A stretch of DNA of 64,000 bases from a phage: NCBI GenBank assembly GCA_026066175.1, contig GCA_026066175.1_4721.1, one strand, 5' to 3'. Made by a program: the position numbers and the translations under genes. Positions 6,961-59,622 of the stretch are shown one piece after another (position 1 is the first letter of the stretch; each line of letters begins with the position of its first letter). The notes under the pieces were generated by a model. It made no database searches. It was not told the DNA's origin and saw only the letters and a list, made by a program, of their open reading frames with translations.

Positions 6961-7080
6961 GTTAGTACTCCAATTAGTTTTTCGATCGATCAAAAGGATA
7001 AAATCAGAAGATTCTTTTCTTCATAGGGAAAACACAAGTCGGTTAAGGTTTACTTCTCAAACTCCTTGCGTTCTATCAGT

Positions 7081-7095
7081 TAGGTAATATAGACC
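7081..7095 (-). promoter_or_regulatory. candidate phage early promoter motif (GGTCTATATTACCTA on the transcribed strand)
   Basis: Plus-strand TAGGTAATATAGACC; one of five copies of GTAATATAG(C/T)C, all placed so that TATATTAC reads toward a downstream minus-strand gene start. Confidence 0.45.
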
Positions 7096-12278: not shown

Positions 12279-13409
12279 TTATTTGGCTTCATTAAAATAA
12301 ATATCAACGGCACGTTCCGTTGCGTAGAGAAGACCCAGATTCACGGTCCCTACCACTTCCGGTGAACCGATGATACGGTTAGCGATACTGGTGCCACTGA
12401 AGATAGCATCAAGGGTGTGCCCGTCTTCGGTTTTGTTCACACCATGACCCACGGAAGAGACAACGGATTTCGCCTGTGCGGCGAAGGTACCTTTATCCCC
12501 CATTCCCGCACCAAGGTCGTAACGCATGAAAATACGGATCGCGATCTGGTTCTCACCTAACGGATTACCGTCTATTCTCACGTTACTGTTATTGATGCGT
12601 CCCGTTGTTGCTTCGTTGAGTTTCAGTTCCTTAACACGTTTAGCTCGCGCCTTATCAGCGTCACCCACAAGTGCTGCCATGGTTTCGCTCATGTCTTCAA
12701 TCTGAGCGCGGTACAACACATCGATCTGTACGACTTCACCATGCACGTCAGCGCGTGGGTTATACTGACTCATACGGCGTAACGCTTCAACCGCTTCCTG
12801 ACTTTCATCGCTCAGATCGGTTGCAATAGGTTCTTCCAGTGTTGCCAGGATCGTCCGAGGTTCAACATGATCGCCGATTTTCACCAAACCACGAATGTTG
12901 AGATGAGCGTCAACAATGAGCGTACGGCTCTTAATCGATGGGGTTACGAGACGATCGGCAAGATTGTCGAAGATATACGAACTGTCCTCGTGCGTTTCTG
13001 GAATATCCAGAATACCAACCAGAGACAACACGCCTGCGCGCCAAACAACCTGACCTGGGTTCCACCAATCCCGTTTAAAATAAAGACGATGGAAAACCAC
13101 TACATCCTGGTCCTTAACGCGATCCCCGACTTTATAATCGGTAATGAGATCGTGAGGATAATACTTACCTGGTCCTTTCCCGATTATCGTACCGAGTTGG
13201 AAAACCTCTTCCCCTAATTCTGGATCGTCGTATTGTATCGTAAGCGCTGTTTTGGTGACCTTCTTCACAACACCATCGCCTTGAGCAGCTGCTGCGAAGA
13301 GTTTACCAACACGATGCGCGATAACAGTCTCGCCACCAGTGCGCCATGGTTGTACGTCGTAACCTTCAGCGGCTATCATGCGGTTGTGTTGGATGCCTAT
13401 AAACACCAA
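12279..13409 (-). CDS. multisubunit RNA polymerase beta-like subunit, central fragment (possible downstream exon)
   Basis: By-eye alignment to bacterial RpoB: FIGIQHNRMIAA resembles the conserved ANRALMG segment; IRIFMRYDLGAGMGDKGTFAAQAKSVV resembles [26 protein letters not shown]. Track start is TTG with no SD and the frame is open for 8 codons upstream, consistent with an exon. Not database-verified. Confidence 0.5.
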   Translation of the reverse strand: MVFIGIQHNRMIAAEGYDVQPWRTGGETVIAHRVGKLFAAAAQGDGVVKKVTKTALTIQYDDPELGEEVFQLGTIIGKGPGKYYPHDLITDYKVGDRVKDQDVVVFHRLYFKRDWWNPGQVVWRAGVLSLVGILDIPETHEDSSYIFDNLADRLVTPSIKSRTLIVDAHLNIRGLVKIGDHVEPRTILATLEEPIATDLSDESQEAVEALRRMSQYNPRADVHGEVVQIDVLYRAQIEDMSETMAALVGDADKARAKRVKELKLNEATTGRINNSNVRIDGNPLGENQIAIRIFMRYDLGAGMGDKGTFAAQAKSVVSSVGHGVNKTEDGHTLDAIFSGTSIANRIIGSPEVVGTVNLGLLYATERAVDIYFNEAK

Positions 13410-13733
13410 TCTCTTGGGCGAATTTAGTTCTTATTCAGTATTAACATACCGTTACCGAAATAAGACTGAGATTAGATTGTTCAGATAAGGTCGTTAATCT
13501 TATCCCGGAGGTGATGATAGGCACATCACCTCCCGCTTACGTTCTCACGCAAGAGCAGACTATATCACATCTCGTTTCAAACGGTGCTTCTTCAGCACCT
13601 CAACGAGAGTTCACTTCTTCCCAGCGCATCCAGCGCCATTCTCTTATCCAAGGAGAATGCCTCACTCGAGGGGTACAGGGGGATGAATCCCTTAGTCGTT
13701 GAACCGTCACCCTAGAACGTTTCACAACGATCC

Positions 13734-14945
13734 TTAGGCGATTGGCTGCGGATTACCCTTGGCCTGCGGACCACGAACTTTTGTCGCGGTCAACTCTTCA
13801 TTTTTAAAGCCTGCTTCACGAGCAATACGTCTCGCTTCTCGCACGTCTAACGTTTCCGTTTCCGCTTTGGCTGAAGGCAGCATTGGGCGTCCCCGCAATT
13901 CAATGAATCTCGTCCATACGTCACCGTATAAACGGACCCGCTCTTTGTAAACAGAATAGTAGATATAACGTTTTCCGTCAGGAAATTTAGTCATTCCATC
14001 CGACTTTAAACGGTAATTGAGTAACGTAGTAGATATACCCATTTCTTCAGCGCAATCGACGGCCGAAAGGTACAACAGAGGTACATCATTTTCAGGAATG
14101 ACGACAATAGCACGTTTGTTGGTTGTCTTCTCCAACTCCAGGATACTATCTTCGACTTCTCGCCATGGCGTCTCATCAGTAACCCACTTAACTTGATAAC
14201 AACCATTAACGACAGGTTGGTTCTTGTCGTTAACGTACATCGACGCAGTGGATAACTTAACACCAATGTGATTCGCGAATTCAGTCAATGATTCGAAAAG
14301 ATGAATCTCTTTTGTTATCGTTGACCTTGCAATCACACCCTTACTTCCCGTATCCGTCAACGTTGCTAACTCGTATTTGGTGGGAATACGCCATGGTTCA
14401 TCGCCGTAATCTTTGCGGTACTGCTTACGTTCAGGAAACGCTCGCTGTTTGCCTCTATAGACACGATGATGAATGAAGTCGATATTCACACCAAGATCGC
14501 GTGCCGCTTCCGTCATGGATGGATATCTGGTTACAACACCGGTATCAACATCACGAACCTGAATAGGTTTACCGTAGGCAGCAATTGAACGTTTACGCAT
14601 GTTCATAATGCGAGCATGCTGATTGTTCTCTTTCTGCGTAACCCATTCAAGATTGTCATTCTCGGCGTTACCGTCGGGATCAAGGTAGTTATTAAGTCTG
14701 TTGCCGTCCTTGTGGTTCACATGGAGCAAATGCGCATCATCGATGTTACGGAACGTTAACATTAGAAGCCTGTGCATGGAACGGTAAACCAATGTTCCAT
14801 CGTGACCTCGAAACGAATAACGATAATACCCAGCAATGATGGTGGGCAAATATTCAAACTTCGATTCCTTGTTACGCAATGTTCCATCTATGGATATCTC
14901 CAGGAACGGGAATTCCGGTACGGTCTTAAATACCTTCTCACTCAT
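13734..14945 (-). CDS. HNH homing endonuclease with NUMOD-like DNA-binding repeats
   Basis: HVNHKDGNRLNN...NLEWVTQKENNQHA HNH motif near the N-terminus; three helix-turn-helix-like repeats (TEAARDLGV, TEFANHIGV, VDCAEEMGI). AAGAGGAA SD before the ATG and a TATATTAC-type motif ~45 nt upstream. Confidence 0.8.
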   Translation of the reverse strand: MSEKVFKTVPEFPFLEISIDGTLRNKESKFEYLPTIIAGYYRYSFRGHDGTLVYRSMHRLLMLTFRNIDDAHLLHVNHKDGNRLNNYLDPDGNAENDNLEWVTQKENNQHARIMNMRKRSIAAYGKPIQVRDVDTGVVTRYPSMTEAARDLGVNIDFIHHRVYRGKQRAFPERKQYRKDYGDEPWRIPTKYELATLTDTGSKGVIARSTITKEIHLFESLTEFANHIGVKLSTASMYVNDKNQPVVNGCYQVKWVTDETPWREVEDSILELEKTTNKRAIVVIPENDVPLLYLSAVDCAEEMGISTTLLNYRLKSDGMTKFPDGKRYIYYSVYKERVRLYGDVWTRFIELRGRPMLPSAKAETETLDVREARRIAREAGFKNEELTATKVRGPQAKGNPQPIA

Positions 14946-14985
14946 TGACTATATTCCTCTTGTGCAGTGAAACTAACTACACTTT

Positions 14986-14997
14986 CGTAATATAGCC
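14986..14997 (-). promoter_or_regulatory. candidate early promoter motif upstream of the HNH gene (GGCTATATTACG on the transcribed strand)
   Basis: Plus-strand CGTAATATAGCC in the 75-nt gap between the beta-like ORF stop and the HNH start. Confidence 0.4.
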
Positions 14998-15020
14998 TTA
15001 ATTCTGTTTACATTGAAGCC

Positions 15021-18000
15021 TTAATCATCTCTATCAGCAGCAGGTACTGCAAGTGCTGATGTACTCATTATTGACGAGCTACCATCCGTTTTCTCGTCGT
15101 AGGGTTTCGTTTCACCGTATACAGACACAATGTTTGCGTTAGGTGCGAGGTAAGCAGAAATACCTACGTCCCCACTATCCTTCGTACCTTCGGATACAAC
15201 ACCAATGTCCGACTTGTCGTACTCACGATCGCGTGCGCGTCGAAGCGATGTTTTCGAACGACCCCCGATACCGGTCATCGTTGCTTCTTCACCCTGCTTG
15301 ATATCCAGCATCGGGTTGGTTTCATCGATGACGATAGAAGCACTGTCGTCAAGGATTTGGTTCCAAACGCTCACCGGACTGATTGAGATCTTCTGTCGGT
15401 TGCCTTGGCTGCTGTTCTCGTTTTGACGAATAGCACCAACCAGATCCTTATACACCAACTCAGCGAACTTATCGTACGTTTTGAAGCGCTGGTAGTTCAC
15501 GTCGTTCGTGTTAGGTGCCCAATCGTCCAGAAGCAGTTCAACCGCACGTAATAACAACATGGCGAAATCAGTCGGTTCGCCCATGTTCTGTAATAACGTA
15601 CGACTTACCGGGTCGACGAAAAGACGCTCCATGAGTTCAAGTTCGCGAAGATGACGAACCTTAAGACCTGCACCATCGACAACGTTAAAATAGATATCCC
15701 GATTGTCGAAAGCACCTCGAGCGTAACCAATGTAGTTACGGTATTCGTTGAATCCGCCTAACAACAATGTCGTCATTCGATCATCTTTACTGAAGATCAA
15801 ACTTTCATCGTCGAAGCTCACCGCGAATTCATCCGATGCTAATCCCATACGAGAACCACGAGGTACCGTACGGTAGTTCGCTTTAAGATGTTCTAATAAC
15901 GGTGTAAGACCACCTAAGTAACTTAACACAACACCAACCGGAATACGTACGCCCATGAACTCAAGGTCAGCGGCTTCGATGGGCATCTTCGCGGCATTGA
16001 TACCGAAGAAATCAGGGAACGTTCCAACCGGCGTTGGGGTTTGATTCGGTTCGTAAACGTATAACTGATTCTGACCATCCACCGCCAGGAATTCGCCGTT
16101 GGTGTTTTTGGCGAACGTTAAGAATCCACCCGCCAGCTGTTCGGTGAATAAATCTTCACCGATGTGTTCCGGCAACGTTTTGATATCGAGGCGTATGTCC
16201 CAATCCGCAAATTGGATTTGGGTGTAGTTACGTGCAAGCACCGCGAAGTAATACGGAACTTTGACAGACGGATCAAAGACGTTACCACGTTTTAAGGTGG
16301 TTAAGGGCGAGGTTTTATCGTAATACATCGCTGTGAGTTGACGTGTTAACCAACGACCAGCATTATTAACCACGCGTTCTGAACGCTTAACGAACACCTT
16401 ACCGTAGGCGGTACTCAACGCAACTTCGGATGACGATACCTTTCTGATTGGTTTATCGACACGTTGTTTACGCATTCGATATTTAATGCCGTTAACGACA
16501 TAAATGCCGTCCTTACGAACCTTCGGTAACATCACCGGGAACGTGGTCGGAACACCGCCTACCGGAGCCAGCTTGATCGTGATGACCTGGTAATCACCCA
16601 TCACGTCAACAACATCTTCAACTTTATATCCGGTAACAGGATAGCCCGCTTGCTGCACCGCCACAACGGCTGCTGCGATGTCCTTTTGCATGACATGTTC
16701 GACGTAGTGTTTATCCCATACGGCAAGCGTCGATTTGCACAAGCTCTTATCAACGATAACGTCCGCTTCCGGCATCACCTTCTCAGGTGCTAATTTCGCG
16801 GCTTTTGGTTTAACCTCAACGTATTCAGCAAGCGTGAGTCCAGAACCGTCAGGTGCTTCAATTTCATGAATCGCGTCAGCGTTACGCATCGCTGCTTTAT
16901 ATTGAACGCCGCTTAATTGACCAGCATCCGCGAGGTCGCTTGCACGTACCAGCACTGCATCGGATAACGACTGAATATATTCACCGTGCGTTTTCGGTAA
17001 CGTTGCCGCATCGAAGACATCAACTTTTTCTTCCGGCATGTCATCGTTGACAACCTCAAAGAGATCATCGGTGATGTCTTGATCTTCGTCCGGTTGAAAA
17101 TCGGGCTGAACTTCAACGCCAGGGACTTCACGAACATCTTCAAACGCACGTTCAACAACCGCGTTCCATGCTTCAGCGTCGTCATCTTCATCCGATCCTC
17201 CGATCAACTCGCTTTCCAGTTCATCGGGGTCAAGAACGGTATCAAGGTCCTCACCGTTAGGAAGCACGACATCACGTTCATCGTACTCCGCATCGGGACT
17301 GTCTGCGAGAATATCACGCTCTTGACGAAGAACCTGCTCCTCTTCTTGTTTCTGTTCTTCTTCATTGGCGCTCTGCGACCACAGACGGGTTACCGCCATC
17401 ATCCAACGACGCTGGAACGTTTCAAGCGTTGTCTTATCAAGTTCCTCGCCTTCCTTCGCTAAACCCGAACGCCATTCTTCCATTAAACCAAGATTCAGAG
17501 TAAAGAAATAGACGCCGTCCGTAAATACAACGTTAAGCTTATCCAGCGAAGCACGGTCCAATGATACCATCGTGCTGTTCTCACGATCGACACCTAACCA
17601 ACGGAAGAAGTCAAAGAACGACAGCTCCTCGGAGGTGGCAAAATTCATGAGGTTATTACGGGTTGGGGCTTGTTGTGTCGTACGCATCAACGATATCTTC
17701 GGTAACGTCGACGGGATACGGAATAACAAGAACTGCTGACGGTCGCTTTGTTGGGCGATCTCGTTTGCTTGCGTCCAAATCGTTTTACGCACGTTGAACC
17801 ATTCATCATACCAACGGGTCAGTGTCGGACGATAGATGTACATGTGGTTAAGATGCGCATAGTTAGCCACGATCTGGGCGTTGATGTTCTTCTCAACCTT
17901 GCTAAGATCGGTGACCAAACGAAAACGACGATGCGATGCACGGTAATCCAGTTTCGCACGCGGTAGCTGGAATCGCTGATCGCGTCGAGGTGCGCCTTGC

Positions 18001-18230
18001 TTGGTTGCAAGATCATCCGCGAATGATATCCAAAGCTGGGCGCTTTCTTTGCTCAGCATGTATTCGTTTTCAGGAGGACCGATTAACGAAGGATCGGTTG
18101 CTGTATAATGATAAACCGCATAACGCGGCAGCTGCAAAAGCTGCACCAAACGCAATCTAGGTGATAATAACTCTTGATAACGTCGTACACCGAATTGTCT
18201 GTAGTAATCAAGGTATTTAAGTTTTGCCAT
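15021..18230 (-). CDS. multisubunit RNA polymerase beta-like subunit, N-terminal fragment (possible upstream exon; ORF tail may be intron-encoded)
   Basis: 1069 aa ORF starting 4 nt after the beta-prime fragment stop. C-terminal RSKTSLRRARDREYDKSDIGVVSEGTKDSGDVGISAYLAPNANIVSVYGETKPYDEKTDG resembles the RpoB segment ...[44 protein letters not shown]. Contains a strongly acidic insertion around 17030-17380. By-eye comparison only. Confidence 0.5.
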   Translation of the reverse strand: MAKLKYLDYYRQFGVRRYQELLSPRLRLVQLLQLPRYAVYHYTATDPSLIGPPENEYMLSKESAQLWISFADDLATKQGAPRRDQRFQLPRAKLDYRASHRRFRLVTDLSKVEKNINAQIVANYAHLNHMYIYRPTLTRWYDEWFNVRKTIWTQANEIAQQSDRQQFLLFRIPSTLPKISLMRTTQQAPTRNNLMNFATSEELSFFDFFRWLGVDRENSTMVSLDRASLDKLNVVFTDGVYFFTLNLGLMEEWRSGLAKEGEELDKTTLETFQRRWMMAVTRLWSQSANEEEQKQEEEQVLRQERDILADSPDAEYDERDVVLPNGEDLDTVLDPDELESELIGGSDEDDDAEAWNAVVERAFEDVREVPGVEVQPDFQPDEDQDITDDLFEVVNDDMPEEKVDVFDAATLPKTHGEYIQSLSDAVLVRASDLADAGQLSGVQYKAAMRNADAIHEIEAPDGSGLTLAEYVEVKPKAAKLAPEKVMPEADVIVDKSLCKSTLAVWDKHYVEHVMQKDIAAAVVAVQQAGYPVTGYKVEDVVDVMGDYQVITIKLAPVGGVPTTFPVMLPKVRKDGIYVVNGIKYRMRKQRVDKPIRKVSSSEVALSTAYGKVFVKRSERVVNNAGRWLTRQLTAMYYDKTSPLTTLKRGNVFDPSVKVPYYFAVLARNYTQIQFADWDIRLDIKTLPEHIGEDLFTEQLAGGFLTFAKNTNGEFLAVDGQNQLYVYEPNQTPTPVGTFPDFFGINAAKMPIEAADLEFMGVRIPVGVVLSYLGGLTPLLEHLKANYRTVPRGSRMGLASDEFAVSFDDESLIFSKDDRMTTLLLGGFNEYRNYIGYARGAFDNRDIYFNVVDGAGLKVRHLRELELMERLFVDPVSRTLLQNMGEPTDFAMLLLRAVELLLDDWAPNTNDVNYQRFKTYDKFAELVYKDLVGAIRQNENSSQGNRQKISISPVSVWNQILDDSASIVIDETNPMLDIKQGEEATMTGIGGRSKTSLRRARDREYDKSDIGVVSEGTKDSGDVGISAYLAPNANIVSVYGETKPYDEKTDGSSSIMSTSALAVPAADRDD

Positions 18231-18233
18231 GAG

Positions 18234-19913
18234 TTAGGCTCCACGAGGTCCCGTTAAGTTGCGTAATAGGAACGCAACCGTATCGTAACCAATATCAATG
18301 TTGAATTTATTTTTACCGCTTACCCAGAAAGCACGCTTCTTGTGCGAGTTGGTAATTTCGTCGATGGCTTCCATGGAATAAAGAACGTTAACAGAGACCG
18401 TATCACCGTCGAAATCGGCCCCGAGCCCGGCGAGAAACACTTGGCCGACTTGGGTCGTTTCTACGAACGATGCTTTTAATGACCAATCTGGGTATTCCCA
18501 CGCCATATAACGATAGCCTTCCATCGGTTGCCAGCTATCGTCGAGTTCTATTCTCGGTTTTGTATTAACCGTCGTTCTCACATAGCAAGTTAACGGTATA
18601 ACTGACTGCATCCCGGATACCGGATAACGTGTAACCATCGCACCGAGTTTATTCCAAAGATGGTAACCACTCAGATAAATCAACTCGCAATAGGTAATTG
18701 GGTGAACATTCGCACCAGGTTTGTTAAGCATCTCTGGTGGTAATTCACTCATACCACGGAACAGCCGGAATGAGTTGTTGTTCACATAGACCAAACAGAG
18801 ATAGCGACCATTCACCATGATAGGTTCGTTACGTACACCAGGATCGCTTAGGGTGTTTAATAAACGTTCGATGCCGTCCCAGGTTGTAAAGTCATCGATG
18901 GTATCTGGGTCTAGCGTGACACGTTCACGTTCCATCGTTTCGGTATCGATAAGCTCAGCTTCAGTAACATCGCGAACAAAGATTTCTTGTAATATCCCTG
19001 TACGTAACGCATGTTGCGTTATCGGAAGGGCTGCTTTGCTCATCTGGTATAGGCCGAGCTGTACAGACGTACACGATGTTTGGTTTGGAGAGCCAAGAAC
19101 TTCGGTCGTTGGAATAACTGCTGAAATAACGTTACGGGTTGAGTTCCAAACACGACGTGAACCGAACTTACCTTGGAAGATCCCTTTCTTACCCTGGAAC
19201 ATATCCAACAGCAATGCGTAGATATCATTGAAGGTTCTTTGCAGGCTCCAGCGCTGTCCGTCGTAGACAGGATCGTTGTAGTCCTTTAACCCATCGGGAA
19301 CGGTATTGGAGATAGCAAGGAAACGACGATAAAGCTCCGTGATTTCTTGTTCGCTTTCATACCCGCCTTCTTTTACTTCTATTTCACGAAGACCAGCAGG
19401 TAACACCAATAAATGACGGGTCATCGCTTTGAACATGTTTTCTTCGACAACTTTAATACGCAGTTCTCGTTGCGCTGAACCTGTTGAAACGAACATGATC
19501 TCCGCAACGTGTTGTGCGAAGAAACCGTAGCCGGTTTGTCCCGTTAACGCATCAGCGGCAACGAAATCACGTTGTTCTGGATCCCATCGCGCATAAGCTT
19601 TACCGGACATGATATCGCCATAAAGGTGTTTCAATCGAATAAGGCGATCGTAAATGACCGGATGCAAGATTTCCACTTTACACTCGATGACCGCAAAGCG
19701 GCGATCACGATCTTCGCTTCCCGCGCTCCCAAAAATGGTGTACGAATAAAAACCATCGTCATGGAAATTACCCGTGCTCGGGTCGCGGATACTCATGCTG
19801 GTAATCTTAGGAAGGAAACGCAACTGCTGCTTATCAAGATGCAGTATACTGATATTGAACGGCTCTCTGACTTTAGCCATGGATGCACTCCTTAAATAAG
19901 GCGGCGGTATCAT
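18234..19913 (-). CDS. multisubunit RNA polymerase beta-prime-like subunit, N-terminal fragment (virion RNAP-like)
   Basis: Contains GADFDGDTVSV (universal beta-prime catalytic NADFDGD motif), GIFQGKFGSRRVWNSTRNVI (cf. RpoC [20 protein letters not shown]) and LVLPAGLRE (cf. VLPPDLRP). The ORF ends ~50 aa after DFDGD, as expected for the split beta-prime of phiKZ-like phage RNAPs. Confidence 0.8.
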   Translation of the reverse strand: MIPPPYLRSASMAKVREPFNISILHLDKQQLRFLPKITSMSIRDPSTGNFHDDGFYSYTIFGSAGSEDRDRRFAVIECKVEILHPVIYDRLIRLKHLYGDIMSGKAYARWDPEQRDFVAADALTGQTGYGFFAQHVAEIMFVSTGSAQRELRIKVVEENMFKAMTRHLLVLPAGLREIEVKEGGYESEQEITELYRRFLAISNTVPDGLKDYNDPVYDGQRWSLQRTFNDIYALLLDMFQGKKGIFQGKFGSRRVWNSTRNVISAVIPTTEVLGSPNQTSCTSVQLGLYQMSKAALPITQHALRTGILQEIFVRDVTEAELIDTETMERERVTLDPDTIDDFTTWDGIERLLNTLSDPGVRNEPIMVNGRYLCLVYVNNNSFRLFRGMSELPPEMLNKPGANVHPITYCELIYLSGYHLWNKLGAMVTRYPVSGMQSVIPLTCYVRTTVNTKPRIELDDSWQPMEGYRYMAWEYPDWSLKASFVETTQVGQVFLAGLGADFDGDTVSVNVLYSMEAIDEITNSHKKRAFWVSGKNKFNIDIGYDTVAFLLRNLTGPRGA

Positions 19914-31146: not shown

Positions 31147-31236
31147 GGCATCACCTATGTATCATTCTTGCAGGTATCAATGATACCGTCACAAGAAGGT
31201 AACGTTTTACGTCGCCTCCATGACTGTTATCATGAA

Positions 31237-31249
31237 GGTAATATAGTCC
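31237..31249 (-). promoter_or_regulatory. candidate early promoter motif (GGACTATATTACC on the transcribed strand)
   Basis: Plus-strand GGTAATATAGTCC, ~90 nt upstream of the minus-strand start at 31146, in a divergent intergenic region. Confidence 0.4.
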
Positions 31250-44315: not shown

Positions 44316-44345
44316 GAATGAAATCTCGCTGGCTTACTTCACTTA

Positions 44346-44357
44346 AGTAATATAGCC
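44346..44357 (-). promoter_or_regulatory. candidate early promoter motif (GGCTATATTACT on the transcribed strand)
   Basis: Plus-strand TAAGTAATATAGCCGTGAAA, ~30 nt upstream of the start at 44315; the same 20-mer recurs at 59607-59626. Confidence 0.45.
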
Positions 44358-59523: not shown

Positions 59524-59607
59524 GGATAAAGTTCCTTGTTTTCACGTTGTTTGATTAACGTACTGATTTCTATTTGACAGAAGACGAACATTGTACGCAT
59601 CTATCAC

Positions 59608-59622
59608 GTAAGTAATATAGCC
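59608..59622 (-). promoter_or_regulatory. candidate early promoter motif (GGCTATATTACTTAC on the transcribed strand)
   Basis: Plus-strand GTAAGTAATATAGCC, ~90 nt upstream of the start at 59523; 20-mer TAAGTAATATAGCCGTGAAA is identical to 44343-44362. Confidence 0.45.

Follow-up and report, generated by a model that had tools for sequence, protein, structure and literature searches.

In phage PhiPA3, the beta gene of the virion RNA polymerase (vRNAP), a homolog of phiKZ gp178, is split into gp211 and gp209 by a well-studied, putative group I intron, which encodes gp210, a homing endonuclease of the HNH type that nicks DNA; this intron-endonuclease system decides competition between the co-infecting viruses PhiPA3 and phiKZ (Birkholz et al. 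2024 Science; PMC11620839). Competition between related phages through intron nucleases is established, according to the reference to Goodrich-Blair and Shub (1996) given in PMC11620839. Here we describe an element of the same kind in a 64,000-nucleotide (nt) stretch of phage DNA (NCBI GenBank assembly GCA_026066175.1, contig GCA_026066175.1_4721.1; this whole stretch is called the window). The element, at 13419..15023 on the minus strand, is very probably a mobile group I intron within the vRNAP beta gene, with predicted splicing and nuclease activities. It occupies the same codon as the PhiPA3 gp210 intron and is therefore a new example of a kind already known. What is new is the Goslar-like host lineage (an E. 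coli phage absent from the phage collection), an expanded periphery, an overlap between the open reading frame (ORF) and the ribozyme, a helix joining the intron to its 3' exon, and a distribution reciprocal to that of Goslar's own intron.

The window region is 88% identical in nucleotide sequence to Escherichia phage Goslar and had no other match in the phage collection; near-identical copies were found only in metagenome assemblies. The host phage is a Goslar-like, nucleus-forming E. coli jumbo phage.

The interrupted beta gene and inserts at the same site

Three ORFs follow one another on the minus strand, just as a preliminary description of this DNA had listed them: 15021..18230 (1069 amino acids, aa), 13734..14945 (403 aa) and 12279..13409 (376 aa, with a TTG start). 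The Goslar counterpart of the two outer ORFs, gp207 ('RNA polymerase beta subunit'), is a single uninterrupted coding sequence (CDS) of 4347 nt and 1448 aa. This answers a check proposed earlier on relatives without the insert, as Goslar has one beta gene and not two ORFs with an intergenic ribosome-binding site. Alignment of the window to gp207 gave two blocks, the first stopping at 15038 and the second starting at 13408, and nucleotide identity to the corresponding parts of gp207 was 86.6% for the 5' exon and 93.1% for the 3' exon. At the insertion site Goslar reads ...AVPAVDRDD GKRLVFVGIQHN..., encoded by ...GACCGTGACGAT^GGAAAACGT... (here and below, ^ marks the insertion or splice site). 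In the window, the first block ends with ...AVPAADRDD^UAA... and the second starts with ...UUCG^CCC AAG AGA UUG, that is, PKRLVFIGIQHN.

A sole junction keeps the frame together with a U at position -1 and a terminal G, namely that produced by removal of 15023..13419 (1605 nt). When spliced in silico in this way, the CDS is 4347 nt long, which is the Goslar length, contains no stop and shares 96.6% aa identity with Goslar. The predicted spliced RNA reads ...GAUGAU^CCCAAGAG..., i.e. GAUAGAGAUGAU^CCCAAGAGAUUG, and the predicted product reads ...AADRDD-PKRLVFIGIQ..., with AADRDDPKRLVF as the peptide spanning the junction. Because this junction removes 15023..13419, the TAA stop of the upstream ORF (15023..15021) is the first triplet of the intron, and what looks like a TTG 'start' in the downstream ORF is a Leu codon within the gene. 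The PKR codons are part of the 3' exon, which therefore begins at 13418 and not at 13409. These boundaries are set by collinearity with the intron-less Goslar gene, and the splice sites are identical in three metagenomic relatives (contigs L011-L013). The preliminary description was thus right about the intron but not about its extent, which it gave as 13410-15080. Similarly, the downstream frame is open upstream of the TTG, as it had said, but for 7 codons (ELNSPKR, of which PKR is 3' exon) and not 8; nor is there a properly spaced ribosome-binding sequence before the TTG, again as described.

Consistent with this interpretation, the Rfam family RF00028 (Intron_gpI) matches 13536..13959 on the minus strand with 51.4 bits, above its curated gathering score of 50 bits (E 1.3e-11 when calculated for the region, 3.9e-10 over the full window). 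No other Rfam family reached its threshold within these 64 kb, and a covariance-model check that had been suggested earlier thereby came out positive. For the host gene itself, Pfam gave no match to either beta fragment or to the adjacent 559-aa beta-prime-like ORF (18234..19913). A PDB sequence search of the junction region aligned DRDD^PKRLVFIG with bacterial EHDD^ANRALMG; the alignment is weak (E 0.08), agrees with PMC11620839, and leaves the earlier assignment of beta motifs roughly right. With no Pfam match and a PDB search reaching only E 0.08, the identity of the host gene rests on phage homologs, by which it is predicted to encode a subunit of the virion-packaged multisubunit RNA polymerase, homologous to phiKZ gp178 and Goslar gp207.

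The insertion point lies right after a conserved Asp-Asp (E. coli RpoB D675 region), as in PhiPA3 (site per PMC11620839), the contexts being ...DRDD^PKR in the window, ...NDD^MKR in PhiPA3 and ...YDD^PKR in 2050HW. Introns at the same site were found in 2050HW, C-ZP2022, 201phi2-1, BUCT660, the EL-like IR-QUMS phage and BONAISHI, with Rfam scores of 37-87 bits. PhiPA3, 2050HW and C-ZP2022 (67.8, 82.6 and 40.2 bits, respectively) share the layout beta-N, endonuclease, core of about 300 nt, beta-C, with GAYGAU^ at the 5' site and G^NNN-AAR-CGN (x-Lys-Arg) at the 3' site. A 300-aa junction-spanning peptide matched 294 chimallivirus records, 282 of them with one place covering at least 80% of the query. 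Inserts at the junction point are present in a minority of these records, some with an ORF and others without. The ORF-less inserts, of 330-500 nt, are those of 201phi2-1 (gp273/274), BUCT660, the EL-like phage, BONAISHI, FishSpeaker and PS2. Rfam recognised a group I core in five of these six (35-87 bits); the FishSpeaker insert gave no Rfam group I match with E up to 0.01, and for PS2 the precise position of the junction is ambiguous. The annotation of 201phi2-1 gives this gene as a joined CDS 'interrupted by a mobile...', and mass spectrometry had served to identify it.

Predicted RNA fold and covariation

The coordinates of the predicted elements are collected in Table 1. The extended P1 is dominated by P1a, a perfect 12-base-pair (bp) pairing of 15012..15001 with 13957..13946, whose strands lie 1043 nt apart. 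It is preceded by GCUU/GAGC and by GAU/GUC, in which the exon end U15024 forms a U.G wobble with the guide sequence at the splice site. P1a-equivalent helices of differing sequence occur in PhiPA3, 201phi2-1, 2050HW, BUCT660 and the EL-like IR-QUMS phage, and the combination of exon-guide pairing and P1a, with different yet complementary guides, was found in seven relatives. The guide GUC lies directly 5' of the P2 hairpin in the same five introns that have P1a equivalents; in C-ZP2022 P3 follows it closely, without an intervening hairpin, and the BONAISHI guide is GCCGUC. Exon ends and guides read GACGAU/GUCGUC in C-ZP2022, GACGGU/GCCGUC in BONAISHI, UGAU/GUCA in 2050HW, CGAU/GUCG in BUCT660 and GAU^UGU/ACAGUC in PhiPA3 and 201phi2-1. 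Across the family, the sequence of this pairing varies and its complementarity is kept. The ORF-less relatives form a local P1 hairpin, where the exon end pairs with a guide (GUC in most) just upstream of P2 and P1a extends the stem. A separate observation is that the introns of C-ZP2022 (L004:4393-5831) and BONAISHI (L008) are apparently one codon apart (DD^AKR versus DDG^KR), with their guides, GUCGUC and GCCGUC, changed to match.

Upstream of the ORF, no guide sequence common to the family was found in the 78-nt leader. An alternative guide, GUUAUAUCUA at intron position 1054, pairs with the exon at 9 of 10 positions; it was rejected, since a different site had an equal score in that scan and neither PhiPA3 nor 2050HW conserves it. 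For P5, the RNAalifold register UGCCUU/AGGGUA was dropped, and the cmscan register GCCC/GGGU was kept by PhiPA3 homology despite one mismatch in L012.

In the core, the R and S elements reported in the preliminary description do pair as P7 (GACUA/UAGUC), with GUUCAACGACUA at 13704..13693 facing GAUAUAGUC. A 10-bp hairpin reported 3' of them is also real, although one base off (13507..13516 with 13524..13533); labelled P9-like there, it maps here as P9.1, and P9 is 13536..13553. In the P7.1/P7.2 position, PhiPA3 and 2050HW have two hairpins.

Covariation was examined in a four-sequence alignment of Goslar-like copies (the window and the three metagenomic contigs) under a curated structure that includes the P3/P7 pseudoknot and comprises 137 pairs, or 548 pair cells. 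Standard pairs fill 99.1% of these cells, and compensatory changes are seen in 13 pairs: two in P2, one each in P3 and P4, two in P6, four in P8/P8a and three in the intron-3' exon helix. In control analyses, none of 500 shuffles reached the observed value, and sliding the partners by 1-3 columns left 0-1 pairs. Both compensatory pairs of P2 are in L012, whose loop, GCGA, is again GNRA. The intron-3' exon helix has 6 bp in all four copies and exists in two versions (AAUCUC/GAGAUU versus AGACGC/GCGUCU), with three positions changed on both sides.

Table 1. Positions of exons, predicted intron elements and motif copies; all on the minus strand.
Feature	Position	Remarks
5' exon, vRNAP beta gene	15024..18230	1069 codons; ends ...AADRDD; last base U at 15024
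Predicted group I intron	13419..15023	1605 nt; 5' splice site after U15024; terminal G (omega-G) at 13419
5' side of extended P1	15026..15024, 15019..15016	exon GAU, then GCUU, then P1a 5' strand
P1a 5' strand	15001..15012	UGUAAACAGAAU; intron +12..+23; perfect 12-nt inverted repeat with 13946..13957
Promoter-like motif	14979..14995	CTATATTACGAAAGTGT; 34 nt upstream of HNH start codon
HNH homing endonuclease gene	13734..14945	403 aa; ribosome-binding sequence GAGGAA at 14959..14954
3' side of extended P1	13935..13957	P1a 3' strand 13957..13946; GAGC 13943..13940; guide GUC 13937..13935
P2 hairpin	13911..13934	10 bp; GNRA loop (GUGA)
P3 5' strand and P4-P6 domain	13703..13907	P3 13907..13902; cmscan alignment
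P4	13897..13892 / 13752..13747	cmscan alignment
P5 with extension of about 125 nt		cmscan alignment
P6	13746..13703	holds HNH stop codon UAA at 13736..13734
J6/7 and P7 5' strand (R element)	13693..13702	UCAACGACUA
Four small hairpins, P7.1/P7.2 position	13610..13692	followed by P3 3' strand AGUGAA (13615..13610)
P8, then J8/7 and P7 3' strand	13558..13609	P8 13609..13569; GAUAUAGUC (S element, 13566..13558)
3' peripheral domain	13429..13553	P9 13553..13536; P9.1 13533..13507; P9.2 13505..13484
Extra terminal hairpin	13465..13429	not present in PhiPA3 and 2050HW
Intron-3' exon helix	13473..13468 / 13413..13408	AAUCUC/GAGAUU; encloses 3' splice site
3' exon, beta gene	12279..13418	starts CCC AAG AGA = PKR, 9 nt upstream of TTG of mechanical ORF
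Exact CTATATTACN5TGA copies	7076..7092, 31230..31246, 44339..44355, 59604..59620	intergenic

The endonuclease gene and its promoter-like motif

The presence of an HNH endonuclease gene with its own Shine-Dalgarno sequence, as proposed earlier, was borne out by the GAGGAA sequence, by a Pfam NUMOD1 match (34.4 bits against a cut-off of 22.8) and by a match to the I-HmuI structure 1U3E (E 3.5e-5); sub-threshold matches to I-TevI_DNA-bd, I-HmuI_NUMOD-like and HNH_3 were also obtained. Among 50,697 phage records, the best match by E-value is PhiPA3 gp210 (36% identity over 76% of the query, E 5e-46), followed by the endonucleases of Serratia phages 2050HW and Haymo, Pectobacterium ParM-25 and Vibrio C-ZP2022. 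Residues H58, N77, H78, N98, N107 and H110 are invariant in the alignment with gp210 and relatives. Among them, H78 aligns with the catalytic H82 of gp210, whose mutation to Arg abolishes activity (PMC11620839).

The predicted fold places the gene within the loop of the extended P1 (P1a). The peripheral-loop placement of the preliminary description therefore stands, with the addition that the ORF runs on into the core: its last 73 codons (331-403) overlap the P1a 3' strand, the guide, P2, P3, P4, P5 and part of P6, and the endonuclease ORFs of relatives end about 70 codons earlier. Synonymous to non-synonymous codon differences in codons 1-330 are 123:78 (window-L011), 129:101 (window-L012) and 110:79 (L011-L012), and in codons 331-403 they are 2:6, 7:15 and 5:9 for the same pairs. 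Nucleotide divergence between the window and L011 is 28% over codons 1-330 and 4.6% over codons 331-403. The synonymous excess thus points to purifying selection on the ORF body as a protein. Conservation of the tail is at the level of RNA and not of protein, and the best interpretation of it is that the ORF reads through into the ribozyme core.

A 15-nt inverted repeat of 87%, pairing the region of the start codon (14942..14956) with 14277..14291, that might mask the ribosome-binding site is not conserved in L011 or L012 and was taken as chance. In PhiPA3 (L002:4340-4383) and 2050HW (L003:4430-4473), a hairpin of 6-8 bp (CUCCAA...UUGGAG and CUCCUUAA...UUAAGGAG) has the ribosome-binding sequence for the intron ORF in its 3' arm, an arrangement that could restrain nuclease translation.

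The TATATTAC-type motif noticed earlier upstream of the gene is present and belongs to a longer 17-nt motif, CTATATTACN5TGA, which occurs at five sites with at most one mismatch against 0.36 expected; a count of five was reached in none of 100 shuffles. Each of the five sites is on the minus strand and precedes the start of a minus-strand ORF by 24-84 nt. The four exact copies have extra bases in common (GGC before the motif and GTGA after it), and the intron copy is conserved in L011-L013. A literature search on TATATTAC found nothing relevant. The motif is probably a phage promoter, in which case expression of the endonuclease would not depend on that of the host gene.

Proposed homing, rival explanations and known introns

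Taken together, the fold and the gene content suggest the following course of events. The beta gene would be transcribed as a single pre-mRNA, in which the intron would fold into the extended P1 (exon GAU on guide GUC with the U.G wobble at the splice site, and the 12-bp P1a) followed by the core P2-P9; the helices of this fold are supported by sequence and covariation. External guanosine would attack after U15024, whereupon the terminal G at 13419 would dock and the exons would be ligated. The product would be the 4347-nt frame for a 1448-aa beta subunit, a frame whose restoration can be read directly from the DNA. The 403-aa endonuclease in the P1a loop would be expressed via its own promoter-like motif and ribosome-binding sequence and, like gp210, would nick intron-less alleles (e.g. 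Goslar gp207) near the Asp-Asp codons. Recombinational repair would then copy the intron plus flanking exon sequence into such an allele, and the same nuclease activity could damage a co-infecting intron-less relative.

The exons around the junction differ from the rest of the gene. In 60-nt steps, identity to Goslar gp207 is 90-100% in the flanks and 70-78% from -120 to +60 around the junction (window 15024..15143 and 13359..13418), and within 15 nt of the junction it is 53%, in the lowest 0.6% of 30-nt windows in the gene. The differences are mostly synonymous, and protein identity stays high across the patch. Such a patch is consistent with homing of the intron from a more distant donor together with flanking exon (co-conversion); alternatively, it could result from selection for a nuclease-resistant site. 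The endonucleases of the three metagenomic contigs with the same intron are 99%, 79% and 72% identical to that of the window, and all have 403 aa. In L013 the ORF is 99% identical, yet the terminal hairpin is another one, the P9.2 loop has a 24-nt insertion and the first 3'-exon codons are different. Compared with window 13404..13480, both L012:4440-4531 and L013:4440-4544 have a different terminal hairpin and differ in the first codons of the 3' exon, and they still keep the 6-bp intron-3' exon pairing, in its AGACGC/GCGUCU version. These mosaic 3' ends suggest recombination between intron variants.

Goslar possesses a group I intron of its own (Rfam 67.7 bits) in the beta-prime-like gene gp205 (L001:734-2817), inserted inside the catalytic motif (GGD^FDGD) and carrying the HNH protein gp206. 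The corresponding site of the window (~18420..18440) lies in the uninterrupted ORF 18234..19913 and reads GADFDGD. Since the Goslar intron is found only in beta-prime and that of the window only in beta, each phage has an intron where the other has an empty site. It is conceivable, if rather doubtful, that the two phages form a natural pair with reciprocal homing or mutual interference in mixed E. coli infection, and that, additionally, the 73-codon ORF-core overlap is tolerated only through splicing in the phage nucleus, away from ribosomes. If this were true, the nuclease of each phage would nick the intron-less allele of the other in mixed infection. Separately, the region upstream of the C-ZP2022 beta gene (L004:91-1411) has a further endonuclease gene and a further group I match, below threshold (40.7 bits); as in Goslar, the adjacent gene presumably holds an intron too.

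The preliminary description had offered, as an alternative to an intron, a free-standing HNH gene between two naturally separate genes for beta fragments, which would give two polypeptides. RNA polymerase genes of jumbo phages are indeed often split (PMC7598289), and mechanical ORF calling does end one ORF at 15021 and begin another with TTG at 13409. Against this, the gene of the nearest relative, Goslar, is continuous and has exactly the spliced length that excision restores, Rfam puts a group I core between the fragments, conserved PKR codons stand upstream of a TTG that has no properly spaced ribosome-binding sequence, and compensatory changes maintain the RNA structure. Because every proposed test that could be run favoured an intron, the free-standing nuclease is rejected as extremely improbable, and a self-splicing-type intron splitting the beta gene, as first suggested, is supported by the Rfam match, the intron-less Goslar gene, the precise excision, the covariation and the precedent of PhiPA3 and 201phi2-1.

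Several observations nevertheless weigh against an active mobile intron. The RF00028 score exceeds its cut-off by only 1.4 bits. Pairing of the exon in P1 amounts to just 3 bp (GAU/GUC), which a mini-construct does not form in its minimum-energy fold; the Azoarcus intron likewise has a 3-bp exon-guide pairing. No convincing P10 was found, as at most 2 bp (CC/GG) are possible, and we make no claim for it. The covariation comes from four sequences, two of them nearly identical, a modest depth that is consistent across helices. In the nuclease, Pfam HNH_3 scores 17.3 against a cut-off of 24.8, and the HNH motif is split by an 8-residue insertion, DPDGNAEN (residues 93-100, window 14646..14669), which is in every Goslar-like copy and not in gp210 or other relatives. 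Translation through the ribozyme core could disturb folding if the two processes are coupled. Finally, splicing, nicking and any role in competition are predictions. The borderline Rfam score, the minimal exon-guide pairing, the insertion with the sub-threshold HNH_3 match and the 73-codon tail without protein-level constraint would all suit a decaying intron, inherited vertically with homing lost, in which either the ribozyme still splices and the endonuclease is inactive, or splicing is inefficient or dependent on a helper protein. By contrast, the ORF body shows purifying selection (123:78 and 129:101) among copies that are 72-79% identical, the HNH motif residues are all invariant, the full length of 403 aa is retained in every copy, the promoter-like motif and intron leader are conserved, and the diverged exon patch and mosaic 3' ends suggest ongoing exchange. 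We consider decay unlikely on these grounds. On every testable feature, the intron and its HNH nuclease (I-HmuI type) appear to belong to the PhiPA3 gp210-type intron family of chimallivirus vRNAP beta genes.

The gap and the beta 'fragments' on its two sides make up one gene, which automatic annotation of the window phage and of several deposited relatives lists as separate genes. The intron-endonuclease system of PhiPA3 and phiKZ is now extended to the lineage of Goslar, which is the E. coli model for phages that form a nucleus. As both intron-plus and intron-minus alleles occur naturally at two polymerase genes, these two close relatives provide a tractable pair for studies of homing, co-conversion and interference. 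The ORF in the P1 loop overlapping the ribozyme core and the covarying intron-3' exon helix are of structural interest.

Among known systems, the PhiPA3 gp210 intron shares with that of the window the host gene, the insertion point after Asp-Asp, a homologous endonuclease with its catalytic His, an ORF in the extended P1 loop, a GNRA loop in P2, inserts of the P7.1/7.2 type and a UAACGA loop in P9.2. The two differ in intron length (1605 nt in the window versus 1352 nt) and in ORF length (403 versus 330 aa), the latter because the window ORF reads 73 codons further through P2-P6. The window intron also differs in its E. coli host and Goslar-like lineage, its larger P5 and P7.x region, its extra 3' hairpin, its covarying intron-3' exon helix and its exon P1 of only 3 bp. 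The ORF-less introns of 201phi2-1 (gp273/274), BUCT660, the EL-like IR-QUMS-PaBa1 and BONAISHI have the same site and core as the window intron; they are 330-500 nt long and lack an endonuclease gene, and their local P1-P1a hairpin marks where the ORF is inserted in the ORF-containing versions. The Goslar gp206 intron is likewise a group I intron, in an adjacent polymerase gene and with a related HNH protein (27% identity, E 1e-6), but its gene and site are different, and neither phage has the intron of the other. The I-HmuI and I-HmuII introns in the DNA polymerase genes of Bacillus phages SPO1 and SP82 are, like the window intron, phage group I introns in an essential polymerase gene that encode an HNH nicking-type nuclease with NUMOD-type DNA-binding modules; the host gene and phage family are others, and the similarity is limited to the N-terminal ~150 aa. 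In phage AR9, an early promoter and gene g190 are located within the intron of the late gene g189 (PMC5312081). Like the window intron, this is a jumbo-phage intron carrying an ORF and its own phage promoter (PMC5312081); it differs in phage and gene, and the promoter in the window is deduced from the recurrent motif alone.

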